DNA of 64,000 nucleotides from an uncultured Bacteroidales bacterium (lineage in GTDB: Bacteria; Bacteroidota; Bacteroidia; Bacteroidales; UBA1402): assembly GCA_964575345.1 (NCBI GenBank), contig CAZNQD010000003.1:11310-75309 (forward strand). Direction: 5' to 3'. A program made the translations under genes and the position numbers. Below the pieces are notes generated by a model. It was not told the origin of the DNA, made no database searches, and worked only from the letters and a program-made list of their open reading frames with translations. Below, piece after piece: positions 5,271 through 64,000 of this stretch. Position 1 is the first letter of the stretch. Every line of letters begins with the position of its first letter.

Positions 5271-6653
5271 ATGTTTTCTACTCAGACATACATTCAACGA
5301 CGAAATATTCTTTGCAGTTTACTGGACGAAGGTCTGGTATTATTAATGGGCAACAATGAAAGCCCCATGAATTACGCCGACAACACTTATCCTTTTCGGC
5401 AGGACAGCAGCTTTCTGTATTACATCGGGCTGGACCAGGCCGGATTAATGGCACTTATAGATATCAACGAAGGGCAAACTATCCTATTCGGCAAAGACGC
5501 AAGCATTGACGATATTGTATGGATGGGGCCACAGGAAAATCTTGCAGTGAAGGCTCTTAAATCGGGAATTAGGCAAAACAGAGATATCAGACAGCTGCCT
5601 GAGGTGCTGAAAAAAGCAAAATCCCAGGGCAGAAGCATACATTTTCTTCCCCCCTACCGGCCCGACAACAAAATATGGCTTTCAAAGACCTTGGAACTTC
5701 CTATCGAAAAGCTGGCTGAACGGGCTTCCCTTAGTTTAATCAAAGCCGTGGTTCAGCAAAGGGAAATAAAGTCCGAAGAGGAAATTGAAGAAATAGAAAA
5801 AGCGGTAGATACTTCCGTGGATATGCACGTTGCTGCCATGAAAACAGCCCGGCCGGGCATGAGCGAAGCCGAGGTGGCAGCCGAAGTGCACCGAATTGCA
5901 CTTGCCCGGGGGGGAAACCTTTCTTTTCCCATAATTGCCACCATAAACGGCCAGACTTTACATAACCATTATCACGGCAACATCCTCAGGGAAGGCGATT
6001 TGTTTTTGCTCGATGCAGGCGCAGAAACGGTCAGGCATTATTCGGGAGATCTTTCCAGTACTTTTCCCGTCAGCAATACTTTTACGCCTCTCCAAAAAAT
6101 CATCTACGAAGCCAGTCTGAGAGCCCACCGCGCTGCCGTGAACAGCCTGACTCCCGGCAAGACCTTTCGGGCGGTTCATAGGGCTGCCTGTCTGTCGATC
6201 ATTGACAGTATGCTTGCTTTAGGTTTAATGAAAGGGAATCCTGAAGATGCTTTTGAGCAGGGAGCCCACGCCTTATTTCTTCCCTGCGGCACCGGGCATC
6301 AGATGGGCCTGGATGTGCACGATATGGAAGATCTCGGCGAACTATGGGTAGGTTACGACGGCGAGCCCAAAAGCACTCAGTTTGGACTGAAATCGCTGCG
6401 TTTTGCCAAAAAACTCAAACCCGGCCATGTATTTACCATTGAACCCGGCATCTACTTTATTCCTGAACTCATTGATTTGTGGAAGGCAGAGAAAAAACAT
6501 CCCGATTTTTTGTGCTGGAACAAAATTGAAAAATTCAGAAACTTCGGCGGCATCCGCAACGAAGAAGATTATCTTATAACTGCAAACGGCTTTCGCCTGT
6601 TGGGAAACAAGAGAAAGCCCATGACTGTGAGCGAAGTGGAGGCCTTGAGATAA
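5271..6653 (+). CDS. Xaa-Pro aminopeptidase / prolidase, M24B family
   Basis: 460 aa. Aminopeptidase-P N-domain followed by a pita-bread fold with the typical metal-ligand contexts (LLDAGAE, GTGHQMGLDVHD, TIEPGIYF, IRNEED). Confidence 0.85.
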   Translation: MFSTQTYIQRRNILCSLLDEGLVLLMGNNESPMNYADNTYPFRQDSSFLYYIGLDQAGLMALIDINEGQTILFGKDASIDDIVWMGPQENLAVKALKSGIRQNRDIRQLPEVLKKAKSQGRSIHFLPPYRPDNKIWLSKTLELPIEKLAERASLSLIKAVVQQREIKSEEEIEEIEKAVDTSVDMHVAAMKTARPGMSEAEVAAEVHRIALARGGNLSFPIIATINGQTLHNHYHGNILREGDLFLLDAGAETVRHYSGDLSSTFPVSNTFTPLQKIIYEASLRAHRAAVNSLTPGKTFRAVHRAACLSIIDSMLALGLMKGNPEDAFEQGAHALFLPCGTGHQMGLDVHDMEDLGELWVGYDGEPKSTQFGLKSLRFAKKLKPGHVFTIEPGIYFIPELIDLWKAEKKHPDFLCWNKIEKFRNFGGIRNEEDYLITANGFRLLGNKRKPMTVSEVEALR

Positions 6654-56117: not shown

Positions 56118-56251
56118 TGAACAGTACCGCTTTGTTAATAATGCTGAGTGTGCAGATTGTTGTCAGTCTGTTCCTTATATATTTTTTGTATCGGATATTT
56201 AAATCCCGGGGCAATAAATCTAAACAGAATCACTCCCAAAATAATGCATAA
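56117..56251 (+). CDS. small single-TM protein, candidate MetS-like NSS transporter small subunit
   Basis: Not in the ORF track (44 codons). The ATG overlaps the transporter stop (TAATG). Translation is MNSTALLIMLSVQIVVSLFLIYFLYRIFKSRGNKSKQNHSQNNA: one hydrophobic helix plus a basic tail. Confidence 0.55.
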   Translation: MNSTALLIMLSVQIVVSLFLIYFLYRIFKSRGNKSKQNHSQNNA

Positions 56252-57083
56252 CCTTTTGTGAATATCCCTTGGAAACAGGAATCGATTTAACCTTTTCTGA
56301 ATCAAGGTCAATGTAAATACCTTCTTTTTCTTTGCGGATTACCTTAACCTTGTCCGAATTGATAATATAGGATCGATGGCAACGCATTAGCGAACTGTTG
56401 GCAAAGCTTTCTTCTATGGTTTTGAGCTTACAACGCAATAAATAATTGCACATAGCTCCTTTGTTCATGTAGTAAACCTTAATATAATTGTCGTGTGATT
56501 CTATATAATAAAGATTATCCAGTTTTATGGACAGCCTCAGGTTGCCGTAATTATCGGTCAAATGGATTAATTCCTTATCTTTATTGGCCAACTCGTCATC
56601 TGAAACAAAATCTTTATAATTGAGCAGGCGCAAGGTTCTGTTTTTATCATTCAGTGCGCAATACAAAATAGAAATCGTATCAGGTATAATCAGGATCACC
56701 GAAGTATATAAAAGAGCCCTGGGAAAAATGGTCCAGAAAGAAGCATCAGTTTGTTCAATAAAGGTGATGGTAACAAAGGTGTAAAGCATGGTTATGAGTA
56801 CAATCTCGGCAAACAACCAAACGAAAAATCCCAGGAAAGTAAGCTTGAACCACTTTTTGCTATTGTATATCAAGACTCTGCTCAGGATTAAAATCAATGC
56901 CGATACAGCCAAAACACCTATCGTAAAGAAAAAATAGTTTGATTTCCCCAGATCAAACCAGGCTGTGGACGAAAAAGGGGTGTAAATATTTAAAAAAATG
57001 ATAGAAAAAAGTATTGTAAACAGCAAAGATCCAAGCATTTGGTTCTTTTGCAATAGGTAAGAGGGAACTTTTTGAGTTATCAT
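56220..57083 (-). CDS. membrane-anchored LytTR-family DNA-binding protein (no receiver domain)
   Basis: Start at the ATG (MITQKVPSY); the 57104 start is TTG. 4-5 TM helices, then a LytTR domain (LYYIESHDNYIKVYY...LMRCHRSYIIN). Confidence 0.8.
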   Translation of the reverse strand: MITQKVPSYLLQKNQMLGSLLFTILFSIIFLNIYTPFSSTAWFDLGKSNYFFFTIGVLAVSALILILSRVLIYNSKKWFKLTFLGFFVWLFAEIVLITMLYTFVTITFIEQTDASFWTIFPRALLYTSVILIIPDTISILYCALNDKNRTLRLLNYKDFVSDDELANKDKELIHLTDNYGNLRLSIKLDNLYYIESHDNYIKVYYMNKGAMCNYLLRCKLKTIEESFANSSLMRCHRSYIINSDKVKVIRKEKEGIYIDLDSEKVKSIPVSKGYSQKVMHYFGSDSV

Positions 57084-57124
57084 TTTATCCTGTTTTTGGA
57101 ACAAATGCTATCAACAAACGGGGA

Positions 57125-57132
57125 CAAATGTA
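57125..57132 (-). promoter_or_regulatory. -7 box TACATTTG for the LytTR gene
   Basis: CAAATGTA on the plus strand, 42 nt upstream of the ATG at 57083. Confidence 0.5.
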
Positions 57133-57138
57133 AAAACT

Positions 57139-57210
57139 ATTTGGTCACAAATAACAAGATTTGACCACCGATATCCATATTTTCGCCACATTTCCATTTT
57201 TATTCACCAC
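57139..57210. promoter_or_regulatory. array of four direct repeats, consensus WTTTSRCCAC, 20-21 bp period
   Basis: ATTTGGTCAC 57139-57148, ATTTGACCAC 57159-57168, TTTTCGCCAC 57180-57189, TATTCACCAC 57201-57210. Lies between the divergent LytTR and fabH -7 boxes. Confidence 0.6.
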
Positions 57211-57240
57211 ATATACTTGGTCGGCAAGTTATAACAGAGC

Positions 57241-57248
57241 TACATTTG
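57241..57248 (+). promoter_or_regulatory. -7 box TACATTTG for the fabH-fabK-fabF-fabZ operon
   Basis: Motif match 28 nt before the ATG at 57276. Confidence 0.5.
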
Positions 57249-57275: not shown

Positions 57276-58229
57276 ATGAAAATTACTGGAACCGGGAGTG
57301 CTTCTCCTTCCTTGACGGTCAGCAACGATATGCTGGCCACTTTTTTGGATACCAGCGATGAATGGATCCAAACCAGAACCGGAATAAAAACCAGACAAAT
57401 TATTTCGACGGAACATCTAAAAGATTTGGCGGTTCAGGCCTCATCAATTGCAATTCAGCAAGCAGGCATTAAAGCAGAGCAACTAGATTATATCATTTGC
57501 TCGAACACGATTAATGAATACGTTACCCCCTCACTAAGCTGTATTCTCCAGGGTATGCTTGGAGCCGGTTGTCCATGTATCGATCTTAACGGAGCCTGCG
57601 CCGGCTTCATTTACGCACTGGATATGGCTGACGCCCTATTTAAAAGAGGCAATATGGAACATATTCTGGTTATTTGCGCCGAAGAACCCAGCCGTATGGT
57701 TGACTGGACTAAACGCGACACCTGTGTCCTTTTTGGAGATGGAGCAGCGGCTGTAGTCCTTAGTAAAGGCGAAGGCTTCATATCTTTCAAACTTTCCACT
57801 TTTAGCAACACCGACGCCTTGTACCAAATCCGAAAATTACAGGATACGCCTTTTATTAAAAAAGAAGAAGAAGACGGCGCACTGGTGATGAAAGGGCAGG
57901 ATGTCTTTAAATTGGCAGTTAATTGCTCATTAAACGACATAAAAGAGGTGCTCAAAATGGCTGATGTAAAAGCAAATGATGTCGATCACTACTTGCTGCA
58001 TCAGGCAAACATGAGAATTATCGACACAGTAATGAGATATTTGGGGCAAAGTAAAAAGAATTTTCCCCACAACGTTGAACGCTACGGAAATACCTCGTCG
58101 GCCAGTATTCCTATGTTACTGGACGAATTGAATAAAAATAATAAATTAAAAAAAGGACAAAAACTGGTTTTCAGCGCATTCGGGGCAGGTTTTACCACAG
58201 GTGCCTGTCTGCTGGAATGGACAAAATAA
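57276..58229 (+). CDS. fabH: beta-ketoacyl-ACP synthase III
   Basis: 317 aa. DTSDEWIQTRTGI, catalytic Cys (NGACAGFIYAL), His (LLHQANMRII), Asn (GNTSSASIP). Confidence 0.9.
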   Translation: MKITGTGSASPSLTVSNDMLATFLDTSDEWIQTRTGIKTRQIISTEHLKDLAVQASSIAIQQAGIKAEQLDYIICSNTINEYVTPSLSCILQGMLGAGCPCIDLNGACAGFIYALDMADALFKRGNMEHILVICAEEPSRMVDWTKRDTCVLFGDGAAAVVLSKGEGFISFKLSTFSNTDALYQIRKLQDTPFIKKEEEDGALVMKGQDVFKLAVNCSLNDIKEVLKMADVKANDVDHYLLHQANMRIIDTVMRYLGQSKKNFPHNVERYGNTSSASIPMLLDELNKNNKLKKGQKLVFSAFGAGFTTGACLLEWTK

Positions 58230-58240
58230 GACAACTCAAT

Positions 58241-59191
58241 ATGATAAAAACTCGAATTAATACCTTACTGGGAATTGACTTTCCCATTTTGCAGGGAGGC
58301 ATGGCCTGGATTTCAGAATCCAACCTGGCCTCTGCTGTTTCCAATGCCGGCGGACTGGGGCAAATCTCTTCGATCAATGCCGGCGTCGATGTGGTGAGAC
58401 AAGAAATTCGTAAATGCAAAACGAAAACTTCCAGGCCTTTCGGTGTCAATATAATGCTCATGAGCCCGATTGCCGACGATATTGCCCAAATGGTGATAGA
58501 AGAAAAGGTTCCGGTAGTGACTACCGGAGCCGGCATGCCCGGTAAATATATGAACGACTGGCTGAATGCCGGTATTAAAGTGATCCCTGTTGTTCCCTCA
58601 TCGGCTATAGCCAAACGCATGGAAAACATGGGAGCCTGCGCCGTGATTGCAGAAGGGGGTGAATCGGGAGGACATATCGGCGAAATCAACACTATGGCTT
58701 TGGTGCCACAGGTCTGCAACGCTGTCAGCATTCCGGTAATAGCTGCCGGAGGAATTGCCGACGGCAGGGGTTTTGCCGCCGTACTTATGCTGGGTGCCGA
58801 AGGAATACAGTGCGGAACCCGCTTCCTGCTTTCTACGGAATGCATAATCCACGAAAATTACAAAAACAAACTTCTGGCCGCTAAAGATTCCGACACCATC
58901 GTCACAGGCAAAAGCCTGGGACATCCGGTGCGTTCTCTTAAAACTCCCTTTTCCAAGAAGTTTGCCGAAATGGAAAAAGATCCTAACTTTACCGCTAAAG
59001 ATATTATGGATTTTGGCACAGGATCGCTTAGAAAAGCTGTACAGGAAGGGGATCAATTAATGGGCAGCTATATGGCAGGACAATGCGTCGGAATGGTCAA
59101 GGATATTCTTCCGGCAAAACAAATTATCGAAGACCTTGTTTACAATGCAGAGCTTCTTTTGTCAAACACCAATAAATGGATGGAAAAATGA
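58241..59191 (+). CDS. fabK: enoyl-ACP reductase II (FMN-dependent, FabK type)
   Basis: Start at MIKTRINTLLGIDFPILQGGMAWIS. Collinear with streptococcal FabK as I recall it (VVTTGAG, AEGGESGGHIG, IPVIAAGGIADG, GAEGIQCGTRF). Confidence 0.85.
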   Translation: MIKTRINTLLGIDFPILQGGMAWISESNLASAVSNAGGLGQISSINAGVDVVRQEIRKCKTKTSRPFGVNIMLMSPIADDIAQMVIEEKVPVVTTGAGMPGKYMNDWLNAGIKVIPVVPSSAIAKRMENMGACAVIAEGGESGGHIGEINTMALVPQVCNAVSIPVIAAGGIADGRGFAAVLMLGAEGIQCGTRFLLSTECIIHENYKNKLLAAKDSDTIVTGKSLGHPVRSLKTPFSKKFAEMEKDPNFTAKDIMDFGTGSLRKAVQEGDQLMGSYMAGQCVGMVKDILPAKQIIEDLVYNAELLLSNTNKWMEK

Positions 59192-60414
59192 AAAGAGTTG
59201 TAATTACCGGCATAGGAGCTATCTCGCCTGTCGGAAACGATATCCTCACCTTTTGGAATAATCTTAAAAACGGAGTCTGCGGAATCGATACTATCCGCAG
59301 TTTTTCCACCGAAGATCTGCCGGTAAAAATAGCGGCAGAAGTCAAGGATTTTAAACCGGACACCTACGGAATTGACGTCGCCACAGCCCGCAAAAACGAC
59401 CGATATGCCCTGTTTGCGCTGGCCGCCTCCAATCAGGCCATGAAAGACAGCGGCCTTCATATTGAGCCGGAGCGCTTAGGTGTGTACATAGGATCAGGAA
59501 TAGGCGGAATGAACACCTTTGTTGCCGAGACCACCAAAATGATACAAAAAGGCCCGCAATGGATCTCGCCTCTCTTTGTGCCGATGATGATATCTAATAT
59601 TGCCTCGGGCAATGTAGCCATCGCGCACAACGCACAAGGGGTCTGCCTTCCCATTGTGACAGCCTGTGCCACCGGCACTCACTCCATAGGTGAAGCCTAC
59701 AAGGCAATCAAACATGGTTATGCTGACGCCATTATTACCGGAGGAGCCGAAGCTGCTGTAGTTCCCTTGGCTATCGGAGGTTTTGCCAACAGCAGGGCAC
59801 TTTCACGTTCCGAAAACCCCATGGAAGGCTCTCTGCCTTTTGATAAAAGAAGGCAGGGTTTTGTAATCGCCGAAGGTGCCGGCATTCTTGTACTCGAAGA
59901 ATACGAACACGCCCGTGCCAGAGGAGCTAAAATGTACGCCGAAGTGTGTGGTTACGGCAATACCTGCGATGCTTACCATTATACGGCACCCAGACCCGAC
60001 GGTTCCTCGGCAGCAAGATCAATCAGGCTCGCCCTGACAGAAGCCGGTTTCAGGGAAGGCGAGCTAATGCACATCAACTCTCACGGAACCGGAACACCAC
60101 TGAACGACAAATCCGAAACAGCCGCCATTAAGATGGCGCTGGGTGAAAAAACTGCTCACAAAGCCATTATTAATTCCACCAAATCCATGACCGGTCACAT
60201 GCTGGGAGCTGCCGGAGGAATTGAGCTCATTGCTGCCGCCCTGGCTCTGAAAGAAGGCATCGTACCTCCAACAATTCATCTGGATGAACCCGATCCTGAA
60301 TGTGATCTGGATTATACACCAAATCAGGCCAGAAAAGCAGATATATCAATAGCTCTTTCAACATCTCTGGGCTTTGGAGGACACAACGGATGCATAGCAC
60401 TCAGAAAAATATAA
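59188..60414 (+). CDS. fabF: beta-ketoacyl-ACP synthase II
   Basis: Start MKRVVITGIG overlaps the fabK stop (ATGA). Catalytic Cys (VTACATGTHSIG), His-His (AYHYTAP, INSHGTGT), GFGGHN. Confidence 0.92.
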   Translation: MKRVVITGIGAISPVGNDILTFWNNLKNGVCGIDTIRSFSTEDLPVKIAAEVKDFKPDTYGIDVATARKNDRYALFALAASNQAMKDSGLHIEPERLGVYIGSGIGGMNTFVAETTKMIQKGPQWISPLFVPMMISNIASGNVAIAHNAQGVCLPIVTACATGTHSIGEAYKAIKHGYADAIITGGAEAAVVPLAIGGFANSRALSRSENPMEGSLPFDKRRQGFVIAEGAGILVLEEYEHARARGAKMYAEVCGYGNTCDAYHYTAPRPDGSSAARSIRLALTEAGFREGELMHINSHGTGTPLNDKSETAAIKMALGEKTAHKAIINSTKSMTGHMLGAAGGIELIAAALALKEGIVPPTIHLDEPDPECDLDYTPNQARKADISIALSTSLGFGGHNGCIALRKI

Positions 60415-60418
60415 CACT

Positions 60419-60856
60419 ATGAAAAGAGAGGAAATTAAGACGTACATCCCACACAGGGAGCCGATGTTGCTGGTAGACGAAATTAACATTGACGAAAACC
60501 ACGTGGCTCATGCCACTTACCGGGTCAGAGGTGATGAGTTTTTTTTACAGGGACATTTTCCGGGCTTTCCTGTGGTACCGGGAGTTATTCTTTGTGAAAT
60601 TATGGCACAGTCTTGTTCTCTGTTGGTGGGTGATCAGCTGAAAGGCAGAACACCTTTTTATGCCGGAATCGACAAAGCCCGCTTTAAATCTTCCGTTTAC
60701 CCGGGAGACCTTATTGAAATTACAGCAAAAATTATTAATCAGCGATCCATGGTCTTTTTTATCGAAGCGGTTGCCAAAGTAAAAGAAAAAATCTGTGTAC
60801 AAGCCAGTTTGTCTTTTGCACTGGTAGACAATGACGCGTTGAAACAAAAGAAATAA
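60419..60856 (+). CDS. fabZ: 3-hydroxyacyl-ACP dehydratase (stand-alone)
   Basis: 145 aa. PHREPMLLVD and GHFPGFPVVPGVILCEIMAQ hot-dog motifs. Confidence 0.9.
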   Translation: MKREEIKTYIPHREPMLLVDEINIDENHVAHATYRVRGDEFFLQGHFPGFPVVPGVILCEIMAQSCSLLVGDQLKGRTPFYAGIDKARFKSSVYPGDLIEITAKIINQRSMVFFIEAVAKVKEKICVQASLSFALVDNDALKQKK

Positions 60857-61034: not shown

Positions 61035-61673
61035 ATGGAATCTGTCAGCTTTATTCAATGGTGTCTCGACAACTTGAACTATTGGACCATCACCCTTTTG
61101 ATGACAATCGAAAGTTCGTTTATTCCTTTTCCCTCAGAAGTAGTAGTACCCCCTGCTGCATATAAAGCCGCTGCCGGTGAACTCAATATTTACCTGGTTG
61201 TATTGTTCTCTACTATAGGAGCCTGCCTGGGAGCCGTCATCAATTATTCTTTGGCACTATGGATTGGCCGCCCGCTGGTGTACAAGTTTGCCGGAAGTCG
61301 CCTGGGGCATTTACTTCTGTTGAGTGAAGCCAAAATCGAAAACGCCGAAAAGTATTTTGTAAAACACGGGAAAATCTCAACCTTGATCGGACGTCTGATT
61401 CCTGCTGTAAGACAACTGATTTCCATTCCGGCCGGCCTGGCAAAAATGAAATTTGGCACTTTCCTGATTTTTACCGTACTTGGAGCCACTATGTGGAATT
61501 CCATTCTTGCCGTAATCGGCTATTCGCTCCATGCCGTTGTCCCCAAAGATCAGCTGATGGAAAAGGTGTACCAGTACAGCCACGAAATCGGCTATATTTT
61601 TATCGGGCTGGGAGTATTGCTGGTTGCTTTTCTTATTTACAAAGCGCAGGGCGGCCGGAAAGCCTCCAAATAA
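61035..61673 (+). CDS. DedA-family (VTT domain) membrane protein
   Basis: 212 aa. ESSFIPFPSEVVVPPAAY and GRLIPAVRQLISIPAG motifs. Confidence 0.85.
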   Translation: MESVSFIQWCLDNLNYWTITLLMTIESSFIPFPSEVVVPPAAYKAAAGELNIYLVVLFSTIGACLGAVINYSLALWIGRPLVYKFAGSRLGHLLLLSEAKIENAEKYFVKHGKISTLIGRLIPAVRQLISIPAGLAKMKFGTFLIFTVLGATMWNSILAVIGYSLHAVVPKDQLMEKVYQYSHEIGYIFIGLGVLLVAFLIYKAQGGRKASK

Positions 61674-63361
61674 ACTTCTTCTCTGGTATCCAGACCCCTG
61701 ATATAGGTTTCGTGCCTGCTGATTTCCGCCTCGGCGTATTGTACATACACTCTGGCCGGGGAACGCAAACCTTCTGCTGTTGCAGCTTCTTTCAGGAGCA
61801 ACTCCGACATGATGATGTGTCCGGCCATTTCCACCAGCCTGCGGGCACAGAGGTCAAGAAAACTGTTTTGTTGGACTCCGGTAACATAAGCGGTCATTTC
61901 TTCATATTTAGCGGTCATTACCAACAGGCGCTGACGCAATACGCTAAATTCGGAAATTACTTCTTCCTGTTGATAAGCTTTGATTTTCTCCAGATAGGTG
62001 CCGGTTGTTACATGACGAATGGCGGCGATCACCTGCAACTGAGTTGTTCCTTCATAAATAGAGGTAATACGGGCATCTCGGTACCAACGTTCGCAGGCAT
62101 AATCTTTCATATAACCCGAACCACCGTGAATCTGAATAGCATCGTACGCATTCTGATTGGCAAATTCACTGCCCATCCCTTTTGCCAGTGGTGTATATGC
62201 ATCAGCCCAGCGCGAATAGGTTTTCATTTCGGTTCTCTCTTCGGGGCTCAGGGTACGTTCTTTTGCAATGTCTTCGAGACATTTGTAAATATCCACAAAA
62301 CGTGAAGTTTCGTACAAGAGGCTGCGTATGGCGTCCAGTTTAGCCTTCATCAGCGCCAGCATTTCATAAACCGGCGGGAATTCAATGATGGATTTGTCGA
62401 ATTGCTTGCGTGAACGGGCATAACAGAGAGCTCCGCGGTAAGTGGCTTCACATAGCCCCACCGACTGGGCGGCAATTCCAAGCCTGGCACCATTCATCAG
62501 GGCCATTACGTATTTAATCAGGCCCAGCCTGCGGCTGCCGCACAGCTCCGCTTTAGCGTCTTTAAAGACCAGTTCACAGGTAGGCGCACCCTTAATCCCC
62601 ATCTTGTTTTCGATGCGACGTACGGTCAAACCTCCATTGCGTTTGTCGTAAATAAACATCGACAAACCCCGGCCGTCTTTGGTGCCTTCTTCAGAACGGG
62701 CCAGGACCAAATGAATATCGGCGTCTCCATTGGTGATAAAACGCTTCACACCGTTCAGCCGCCAGGTGTTGTCGCTTTCGTCCAGGGTGGCTTTCAGCAT
62801 TACTGCCTGCAGGTCGGAGCCGGCGTCGGGCTCAGTCAAATCCATCGACATGGTTTCTCCTGCACAAACCCGTCCCAGGTAAGCTTTTCTTTGTTCTTCA
62901 GTACCAAACTCATAGAGTGTTTCTGCACATTCCTGCAAACCCCAGATATTTTCGAAACCAGCATCGGCGCGGCTTACCAATTCTGCGGCCATAATAAAGG
63001 GAGTTACCGGAAAGTTAAGGCCACCGAAGCGCCTGGGAATAGCCATGCCCATGAGGCCGGCCTTGATGGTGGCTTCGAGATTGCGCAAGGTTCCCTCAGC
63101 ATATTCTACCCGGCCGTTTTTGCATACCGGGCCCTCCTGATCGATACTTTCGGCATTATCTTCCATAACATCCGCACAAATCTCTCCACAGATTTCCAGC
63201 ACTTTTTCGTAACTGTCCATGCAATCTTCGGCATCTGAGGGAGCATAGTCGTAAACAGTGGCATCACTGAAATTTCGTTCTCTGAGTTCCATTATTCGTT
63301 GCATCAGGGGATGCTGTAAATAATGCTTAAGTATAGGATTGTCAGTAAAATAATTACCCAT
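61637..63361 (-). CDS. acyl-CoA dehydrogenase (long form with C-terminal extension)
   Basis: 574 aa, typical ACAD N-, middle and C-domains (TEPDAGSD, ITNGD, IYEGTTQLQ). Directly downstream of etfA. Confidence 0.88.
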   Translation of the reverse strand: MGNYFTDNPILKHYLQHPLMQRIMELRERNFSDATVYDYAPSDAEDCMDSYEKVLEICGEICADVMEDNAESIDQEGPVCKNGRVEYAEGTLRNLEATIKAGLMGMAIPRRFGGLNFPVTPFIMAAELVSRADAGFENIWGLQECAETLYEFGTEEQRKAYLGRVCAGETMSMDLTEPDAGSDLQAVMLKATLDESDNTWRLNGVKRFITNGDADIHLVLARSEEGTKDGRGLSMFIYDKRNGGLTVRRIENKMGIKGAPTCELVFKDAKAELCGSRRLGLIKYVMALMNGARLGIAAQSVGLCEATYRGALCYARSRKQFDKSIIEFPPVYEMLALMKAKLDAIRSLLYETSRFVDIYKCLEDIAKERTLSPEERTEMKTYSRWADAYTPLAKGMGSEFANQNAYDAIQIHGGSGYMKDYACERWYRDARITSIYEGTTQLQVIAAIRHVTTGTYLEKIKAYQQEEVISEFSVLRQRLLVMTAKYEEMTAYVTGVQQNSFLDLCARRLVEMAGHIIMSELLLKEAATAEGLRSPARVYVQYAEAEISRHETYIRGLDTREEVYLEAFRPPCAL

Positions 63362-63363
63362 GG

Positions 63364-64000
63364 TTATTTAGTGTTTTTTTTGTAATACTGAATCATTTTG
63401 GGGATAACGTCTTCCACTCTGCCCGCTACAACATAATCGGCAATGCTGTTTATGGGGGCGCAACGATCATTGTTGATGGAAATAATAATCGCGCTTTCCT
63501 GCATTCCGGCCAAATGCTGTATCTGACCGGAGATTCCGCAGGCAATGTACAACTTGGGCCTAACCGTCAGGCCGGTTTGTCCGATCTGCCGGTCATGCTC
63601 ACAAAAACCGGCATCGACAGCGGCTCTGGAGGCTCCCACTTCGGCATTAAGCACCGCCGCCAAATCGTATAAAAGTTGAAAGTTCTCTTTTGACCCAACG
63701 CCATATCCTCCCGAAACAATAATGGAAGCACTGTTGAGTTTGTTTTTACTCTTTTCGATGTGCCGGTCTATCACTTTAACGACAAAGTCACTGTCGCTCA
63801 CGTATTCCTTCACATTATGTCTGACGACTATACCTTTGTAGCCGGGATCAAGAATCTCCTTTTTCATGACCCCCTCACGCACTGTGGCCATTTGAGGACG
63901 GCATTCAGGATTGACGATGGTAGCAACGATGTTACCTCCAAAGGCCGGGCGGATTTGATACAACAACTCATCGTATGTTTTATCGCGTTCTTTGTGACTA
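63364..64000 (-). CDS. etfA: electron transfer flavoprotein subunit alpha, C-terminal part (5' end beyond the window)
   Basis: Frame stays open to the window edge; the listed start is TTG. RPAFGGNIVATI, SGGYGVG, GASRAAVDAG, QIGQTG..V.P.LYIA.GISGQIQH motifs. Confidence 0.88.
   Translation of the reverse strand, partial: SHKERDKTYDELLYQIRPAFGGNIVATIVNPECRPQMATVREGVMKKEILDPGYKGIVVRHNVKEYVSDSDFVVKVIDRHIEKSKNKLNSASIIVSGGYGVGSKENFQLLYDLAAVLNAEVGASRAAVDAGFCEHDRQIGQTGLTVRPKLYIACGISGQIQHLAGMQESAIIISINNDRCAPINSIADYVVAGRVEDVIPKMIQYYKKNTK

Follow-up and report, generated by a model that had tools for sequence, protein, structure and literature searches.

A conserved candidate operator of phased direct repeats at the fabH promoter of Bacteroidales, with a four-transmembrane LytTR protein as its likely binder

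The window analysed here is a stretch of 64,000 nucleotides (nt) of DNA from an uncultured Bacteroidales bacterium, in which the gene for a 287-residue LytTR protein with four predicted transmembrane helices (56220-57083, minus strand) diverges from fabH, the first gene of an operon for type II fatty-acid synthesis (FASII). Four direct repeats spaced by 20-21 base pairs (bp) lie between the two genes. From their conservation among relatives we conclude that they are a real operator of the fabH promoter, made up of candidate binding sites, and comparison of loci indicates that the adjacent LytTR protein is their likely binder. We consider it probable, though not assured, that the array serves as the LytTR-bound operator of fabH-fabK-fabF-fabZ, with activation as the favoured direction of control, repression of the regulator's own gene, and a membrane or lipid signal as the input.

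All four repeats read on the plus strand. Repeat 1, ATTTGGTCAC, occupies 57139-57148 with its core TTGGTCAC at 57141-57148, and repeat 2, ATTTGACCAC (57159-57168; core TTGACCAC, 57161-57168), follows 20 bp further on; both are weak sites. Repeat 3, TTTTCGCCAC (57180-57189; core TTCGCCAC, 57182-57189), is a consensus site. The promoter-proximal repeat 4 is TATTCACCAC (57201-57210; core TTCACCAC, 57203-57210), and its CAC end lies 30 nt from the -7 box of the fabH promoter. An earlier note on this DNA had read the four 10-mers at these positions, with CAC ends 20, 21 and 21 bp apart, together with a pair of TACATTTG boxes, and all of this matches the sequence.

One TACATTTG box (57241-57248, plus strand) is the putative -7 box of the fabH promoter, 35 nt upstream of the ATG at 57276. 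The other (57125-57132, minus strand) lies 42 nt upstream of the LytTR-gene ATG at 57083, a start that fits the alignment of homologues. The two boxes form an inverted pair that is 100% complementary, with 108 nt between the arms, and both are exact matches to TAnnTTTG. In the promoter model reportedly put forward for Bacteroides by Bayley and colleagues in 2000, a -7 element TAnnTTTG is said to be preceded by a -33 element TTTG located 19-21 bp upstream. The candidate -33 of the fabH promoter is CTTG at 57216-57219 (plus strand), which begins 5 nt past repeat 4 and 21 nt before the -7 box; relatives have TTTG or TTTT at the same offset. For the LytTR gene the candidate -33 is CTTG at 57158-57155 on the minus strand, 22 nt from the -7 box. 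A scan of the window for sigma-70-type promoters was set aside, that model being inapplicable to Bacteroidota promoters. In the 5′ region of the LytTR gene there is also a direct repeat, GGAACAAATG / GGGACAAATG, at 57098-57107 and 57121-57130, 23 bp apart. Its second copy holds the -7 box, and the first could be another, imperfect promoter element.

We scored the window with a weight matrix trained solely on fabH upstream regions of other genomes. Repeats 3 and 4 rank first and second among the 128,000 strand-positions of both strands, with 17.7 and 16.4 bits, and the next match reaches 14.1. When the 192-bp intergenic region was searched without any given motif, for the highest-scoring four-copy array of 10-mers with steps of 19-22 bp, the same four repeats came out, shifted by 1 nt, with a score of 43. 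The simulated null for this score is 32.3 ± 2.65 with a maximum of 42, and none of 300 first-order Markov simulations attains the observed value. The degenerate pattern WWTTSRYCAC occurs 11 times in the 64 kb on both strands, against 6.0 ± 2.5 expected, and four of the matches fall within this 72-bp stretch, but this count is circular as a test, the pattern itself having come from the sites. The scores bear on the reading that the array is a chance or compositional feature, for example phased A/T tracts that bend the DNA with no specific binder, a reading suggested by the A/T-rich intergenic region and by a pattern picked after the sequence had been seen. Besides the simulations, it is contradicted by conserved columns that are the C-rich cores and not the A/T spacers, and by the recurrence of the array, at a constant distance from the -7 box, in over 40 diverged genomes. 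Chance is thus effectively refuted, and of all the alternatives it is the one we credit least.

The regulator gives 208 homologues at E ≤ 1e-5. A species-level sample, with one genome taken per species, comprises 80 loci whose homologues have 33-50% identity. In 45 of them the homologue diverges from a fab gene (fabH in 28, fabF in 16 and fabK in one), and in 7 further loci of the 80 a fab operon lies convergently downstream. In all eight closer relatives, with 52-93% identity, the regulator remains paired with fabH. Its other flank differs among them, with a SNF-family symporter, an integrase, a kinase, an MFS transporter or FTCD; the fab linkage alone is conserved.

In 28 of the 28 loci in which fabH and the regulator homologue are divergent, same-strand TTYRCCAC repeats of 20-21-bp period stand upstream of fabH, as they do in all closer relatives sampled. 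The conserved array has three or four copies in one orientation. The conservation of repeat sequence and phasing in orthologous intergenic regions, which the earlier note had proposed as a check, is thus clearly positive. The 28 regions contain 81 sites, nearly all on the fabH strand, that give the extended consensus aaaTTCGCCACAAAT. The period of about 21 bp that the note had emphasised is seen in the window, but across genomes the commonest is 20 bp, an 8-bp core with a 12-bp spacer; in the fabH-type loci a step of 20 bp occurs 28 times and one of 21 bp three times, the others being multiples or whole numbers of helical turns (40/41, 50-52 or 60/61 bp). An alignment of nine relatives shows drift in the spacers and invariance in the T..CC.C cores and in the T's of the -33 element. 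Repeat 1 has the invariant columns T..C.C in this alignment, and repeat 2 has TTT..CC.C. In L089, a relative of 55% identity, CCCC replaces CCAC in all four cores (2850-2985), a concerted change that fits a single shared binder.

The same comparison bears on a different parsing of repeats 1 and 2, in which the two would be half-sites of an inverted operator (TGGTCA-N14-TGACCA) bound by a dimeric regulator, and repeats 3 and 4 would be distinct from it. The two hexamers exist in the window as the earlier note had described them, TGGTCA at 57142-57147 and TGACCA at 57162-57167 with 14 nt between, and the pair is found in the 88% relative L083. Already the 93% relative L081, however, has lost it (TGGTCA/TAGCCA), as have all relatives further away, whereas the direct T..CC.C is invariant. 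We have rejected the inverted reading for its lack of conservation, and regard it as highly improbable.

The array is tied to the fabH promoter with a defined geometry. In 846 kb of locus DNA, 31 of the 35 clusters of at least two sites lie directly upstream of a fab operon. In 32 of 42 loci the interval between the proximal CCAC and the fabH -7 box is 29-30 bp, and TTTG or TTTT begins about 5 nt past the core; the exceptions are mostly shifted by one 20-bp step, the proximal copy being degenerate. The distance from the array to the regulator's -7 box is widely variable across loci. Where the genes are convergent (L030, L032, L064 and L039) the array stays with fabH. In a clade with the regulator gene convergent at the 3′ end of fabH-fabF-fabZ-fabG, it is at the fabH promoter, 4-5 kb from the regulator gene, with no sites in the latter's own upstream region. 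The proposal of the earlier note that the regulator acts on both promoters is thus supported only in part: the array is rigidly placed relative to the fabH -7 box, but at variable distance from the LytTR promoter, and it is absent there when the genes are convergent.

We also sampled loci from the FabH side, taking four FabH orthologue loci in a choice unbiased by the presence of LytTR. The array is present in all four, before acpP-fabH in one and before fabH in three, and a divergent LytTR gene in three of the four. The three fabH-first loci have operons of fabH-fabK-fabF-fabZ, with fabG added in two of them (L213 and L214). In the remaining locus, L212, an acyl-carrier-protein gene precedes fabH, the array lies upstream of this acpP gene (5717-5953), and fabG is at the end of the operon. 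Because acpP and fabG belong to some of the operons, the regulated unit is the core FASII operon and not an accessory cluster, and it can be nearly the whole FASII elongation set.

In the window the operon lies on the plus strand. The gene fabH, for beta-ketoacyl-acyl-carrier-protein (ACP) synthase III (57276-58229), is assigned by Pfam and by NCBIfam TIGR00747 (307.5 bits against a cut-off of 292). It is followed by fabK, for enoyl-ACP reductase II (58217, or 58241, to 59191), which matches Pfam NMO and TIGR03151, the latter with 442 bits, slightly below the cut-off of 453. Next are fabF, for beta-ketoacyl-ACP synthase II (59176-60414; NCBIfam TIGR03150, 561 bits against a cut-off of 494), and fabZ, for 3-hydroxyacyl-ACP dehydratase (60419-60856; NCBIfam NF000582, 122.7 bits against a cut-off of 113). 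At 57317-57338, 40 nt within the fabH coding sequence, a hairpin and a run of T's (GGTCAGCAACGATATGCTGGCC ACTTTTTTGG) resemble a terminator; the peptide encoded there is conserved, so the hairpin may be coincidental.

Sites were also found away from these promoters. Isolated good pairs, 22-23 bp apart, lie in L053 (7507-7529, minus strand) and L065 (221-244, plus strand), the former between a small open reading frame (ORF) resembling a helix-turn-helix protein and an unknown ORF; both pairs could be extra targets or chance. A metagenome scan with CCAC-N12/13-TTYRCCAC-N12/13-TTYRCCAC listed at least 120 matches. Among the matches listed, none is in a fab or LytTR context, and they are perfect tandem repeats or high-GC coding repeats from unrelated environments.

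The regulator has LytTR as its sole Pfam domain (PF04397, residues 185-280, with 58.5 bits against a gathering cut-off of 22.6), and its profile matches Protein Data Bank (PDB) entry 3d6w with E = 1.7e-7. In the AlphaFold2 model, with a pLDDT of 75, predicted helices at residues 13-34, 48-78, 83-109 and 116-147 coincide with four hydrophobic segments in the hydropathy profile. These are followed by a low-confidence flexible linker at about 148-170 and a beta-rich domain at 171-283, with strands over 171-270. In Foldseek this C-terminal domain gives a TM-score (target) of 0.68 to 3d6w and 0.71 to AgrA 4g4k, and ComE 4cbv was also matched. The N-terminal part has no fold match in the PDB by Foldseek, and residues 1-170 have no Pfam match. 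The earlier note had drawn on the sites of AgrA-type LytTR domains, but the protein is not of the AgrA type: it has no receiver domain and no Response_reg match, residues 1-147 being the four hydrophobic helices. The NCBIfam BtsR model matches the C-terminal part only (32.7 bits against a cut-off of 246). No conserved cognate kinase is found: the neighbours in the window are a SNF-family symporter and fabH, and among the closer relatives a kinase is present solely in L088. Nor does a gene for a small membrane protein adjoin the regulator in the window or in the closer relatives.

The membrane domain defines a small family, with 274 representatives among 1.84 billion proteins, and because full-length members have about 280-320 residues it is seen only fused to LytTR. 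The fusion architecture is kept across 81 homologues. Among the residues conserved in at least 93% of these 81 members, P36, F37 and W42 belong to the predicted first outside loop and Y86, W89 and E93 to helix 3. We infer that a conserved buried glutamate together with an aromatic loop would suit a lipid-facing sensor. At E ≤ 1e-20 there are 2024 homologues, and the family is abundant in Alistipes-labelled metagenome-assembled genomes from gut and rumen.

Further evidence on the binder comes from clades in which the regulator has a different divergent partner. In one clade this is a 588-residue AMP-binding, fatty-acid-CoA-ligase-like gene, found on the minus strand at four loci (L024 4028-5794, L057 368-2134, L065 4037-5803 and L073 4003-5769). 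The best NCBIfam matches of the enzyme are fatty-acid-CoA ligases, all below cut-off. In another clade, at eight loci, the partner is a DUF6051 gene coding for about 375 residues (L058 4662-5780, L060 408-1541, L068 4675-5796 and L078 4471-5586, and also L070, L072, L079 and L080). Both sets of loci have direct repeats on one strand, recurring about every 20-21 bp, with the variant core TTYR[CT]CCC, as in the L072 array TTTACCCC / TTTATCCC / TTTACCCC / TTATCCC, and at several of them the proximal copy is about 28-30 bp from the -7 box. Pairs 19-22 bp apart occur in 6 of 30 upstream regions compared with 2 of 400 random windows. Counted per 260 bp on the target strand, the strict core has 2.4 copies for fabH, 2.1 for DUF6051 and 1.5 for the ligase, with 0.21 in controls, and a phased pair of strict cores is found in 0 of 2000 control windows.

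Thus the array follows fabH when the regulator gene moves, and related arrays follow the regulator gene when the target changes, which makes the LytTR protein the likely binder. This lends good in silico support to the suggestion of the earlier note that the array has the architecture expected for the adjacent LytTR regulator, the repeats co-travelling with the regulator gene across target genes. The DUF6051 protein has an HGLNERSW motif. A hydrolase role for it is a guess; it may be a lipid-related enzyme and be controlled in a similar way.

A number of observations weigh against the explanation that we favour. Repeats 1 and 2 are weak matches that score about 7 bits with the weight matrix, and repeat 1 has a T at a position where C stands in 81 of the 81 training sites. 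At L214 the array occurs and no LytTR gene is found within 6 kb, so that adjacency is not obligatory. A monophyletic clade of 13 homologues is divergent from a lone fabF and has no TTYRCCAC repeats in the region just upstream of 6001 or equivalent (L011, L025, L027, L038, L040, L042, L046, L050, L055, L056, L059, L061 and L067). Its intergenic region is 75-135 bp long with the -7 boxes back to back (CAAATATA-N8-12-TAnnTTTG), and the two promoters must therefore overlap. We found no LytTR residues that clearly covary with CCAC as against [CT]CCC or CCCC cores; two conservative differences, L175F and V203I, are unconvincing. Lastly, the direction of control is ambiguous, since CoxC and most FASII regulators repress.

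The array of L214 and the fabF-linked clade, with its LytTR gene lacking an array, are both what one would expect if the fabH operator were real but bound by an unlinked transcription factor, the LytTR gene being a conserved neighbour with some other role. Such a factor would not account for related arrays, of the same period and orientation, that follow the LytTR gene to two other target families. Helix-turn-helix regulators usually use palindromes, and the sole palindromic reading here is unconserved, whereas direct repeats of 8-9 bp with spacers of about 12 bp are a known signature of LytTR domains (PMC11347149). We give an unlinked factor a small chance.

If the array is bound by the four-transmembrane LytTR protein, each 8-bp core TTYRCCAC would hold a single LytTR domain. 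The bound domains would follow one another head to tail every 20-21 bp, roughly along one face of the helix, and the proximal domain, lying just upstream of the -33 element, would contact RNA polymerase and so activate the FASII operon. We favour activation because of the rigid register to the -7 box, the often imperfect -33 element and the precedent of LytTR activators upstream of the -35 element. Most LytTR proteins bound upstream of -35 are activators (PMC11347149).

With the same binder and the same sites, LytTR domains beside or over the -33 element might instead exclude RNA polymerase and so repress the fab operon, in a manner tuned by a lipid signal. Most known FASII regulators are repressors, FabT and FapR among them, and the conserved A/T-rich flank of the proximal site extends to the -33 element. 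CoxC, the sole characterised membrane-fused LytTR protein, is a repressor too, acting at PcoxB with three direct repeats that overlap the -35 element (PMC11347149). In the arrays described here, however, the core stops 5 nt upstream of the -33 and not over it. A rigid 29-30-bp register to the -7 box is needed by activators and not by repressors, and many of the promoters have an imperfect -33 (TTTT, TTTC or CTTG), which fits dependence on an activator. Repression of fab is in our judgement the less likely course, although it deserves serious weight.

Occupancy of the array in the window would also repress the regulator's own gene, making a negative feedback. This is expected because repeat 1 lies inside the -33/-7 spacer of the LytTR promoter, with its core 9-16 nt upstream of the -7 box, and repeat 2 adjoins the candidate -33. 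Such feedback would be lineage-specific and not universal. The signal is probably a membrane or lipid cue sensed by the conserved membrane domain, for example free fatty acids or the state of the bilayer. A fatty-acid or membrane-state cue is an economical guess because the targets across clades would be acyl-chain synthesis, activation and possibly hydrolysis.

Other genes of the locus lie beyond the operon. A DedA/VTT-family gene (61035-61673) begins 178 nt after fabZ; its best NCBIfam match is UptA, an undecaprenyl-phosphate transporter, below cut-off. A gene for a long acyl-CoA dehydrogenase is found near the LytTR/fab locus in the window (61637-63361, minus strand) and also in L019, L033, L073 and L212. 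In L212 electron-transfer-flavoprotein genes are annotated beside it, and in the window the adjoining ORF (63364-63966, minus strand) looks like a putative electron-transfer-flavoprotein subunit.

Type II fatty-acid synthesis is essential and a target of antibiotics, and its transcriptional control is known in Proteobacteria, Firmicutes and Actinobacteria. In agreement with the earlier note, we found no FASII regulator described for Bacteroidota in searchable full text, a scope that leaves most subscription journals outside, and within that scope no paper linking LytTR proteins to fab genes. The novelty lies in the sensor domain, the candidate regulon and the phylum, and not in the DNA-binding logic, which is known. 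More tentatively, and at somewhat less than even odds, there may be a Bacteroidales-wide family of membrane-embedded one-component LytTR sensors whose four-transmembrane domain reads the state of membrane lipids or fatty acids. Its clades would control FASII (operons of acpP, fabH, fabK, fabF, fabZ and fabG), a fatty-acid-activating ligase and the putative DUF6051 hydrolase by means of phased TTYRCC(A/C)C arrays.

If true, this would be the first lipid-homeostasis regulator system of the phylum, working on a principle other than that of FabT, FapR and FadR. The array is a first testable candidate for the control of fatty-acid synthesis in these gut bacteria. The handles gained are a regulator family, an operator with a weight matrix, a fixed promoter geometry and three candidate target classes, all of them tied or plausibly tied to lipids. 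With them, the way in which Bacteroidales set lipid synthesis against the uptake of fatty acids becomes open to direct experiment. The family would also bring to the recently recognised class of membrane-fused LytTR regulators, for which CoxC serves as prototype, a second sensor domain with no structural relation to the first.

Canonical LytTR sites are pairs of 9-bp direct repeats, 10-13 bp apart (PMC11347149). The operator in the window has this form, with direct 8-bp cores and spacers of 12-13 bp, and like them it keeps a fixed place beside the element equivalent to -35: the proximal core stops about 5 nt short of the -33 and, in 32 of 42 loci, is separated from the -7 box by 29-30 bp. Given four predicted transmembrane helices fused to a LytTR domain, the closest described analogue is CoxC of Afipia carboxidovorans, an MHYT-LytTR single-component repressor with three 8-bp repeats TTNNNGCN (PMC11347149). 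In both proteins one polypeptide would comprise an N-terminal integral-membrane sensor, a flexible linker and a C-terminal LytTR domain. Both have at least three 8-bp direct repeats that begin with TT, with spacers of about 12 bp, beside the -35 or -33 element, and a regulator gene that adjoins the target operon. The sensor differs, since MHYT (PF03707) has seven transmembrane segments, whereas the domain found here has four predicted helices, no MHYT motifs and no Pfam match. The core also differs, being TTYRCCAC and not TTNNNGCN, and the sites lie just upstream of the -33 and not over it. The target of CoxC is CO oxidation, in contrast to FASII here, in the phylum Bacteroidota with its -33/-7 promoters.

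As summarised in the same source, RcoM1 of Paraburkholderia xenovorans is a haem-PAS-LytTR protein that has a triplet of 8-bp repeats TTCNNGCA with 12-13-bp spacers (PMC11347149). It shares with our system multiple 8-bp direct repeats at about 12-13 bp upstream of a promoter, in the geometry of an activator, and differs in its soluble haem-PAS sensor, in the core after TTC and in its regulon. HdrRM and BrsRM of Streptococcus mutans (PMC6193735) are LytTR regulators under membrane control without phosphorylation that bind direct repeats. There, however, regulator and membrane inhibitor are two proteins from one operon (PMC6193735), whereas here the two parts are fused.

AgrA, ComE, PlnC, FsrA and YpdB share with the present regulator the LytTR fold and direct repeats, of about 9 bp each, that recur about every 21 bp and adjoin the -35 element, and autoregulation is frequent among them. 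Here there is no receiver, phospho-acceptor or conserved cognate kinase, and there are four sites in place of two. FabT, FapR, FadR, FabR and DesT are soluble proteins with a helix-turn-helix domain of the MarR, DeoR-like, GntR or TetR type; their operators are palindromic, and the molecules they respond to are acyl-ACP, malonyl-CoA or acyl-CoA. Our system resembles them in having the regulator gene beside fabH or the fab cluster, as in fabT-fabH, and in a presumed homeostatic control of FASII. None of them is known to have a LytTR or membrane domain, whereas here LytTR is the only Pfam domain and the operator is one of direct repeats. The regulator thus lies outside the MHYT subfamily, the response regulators, the two-protein LytTR Regulatory Systems and the known families of FASII regulators.

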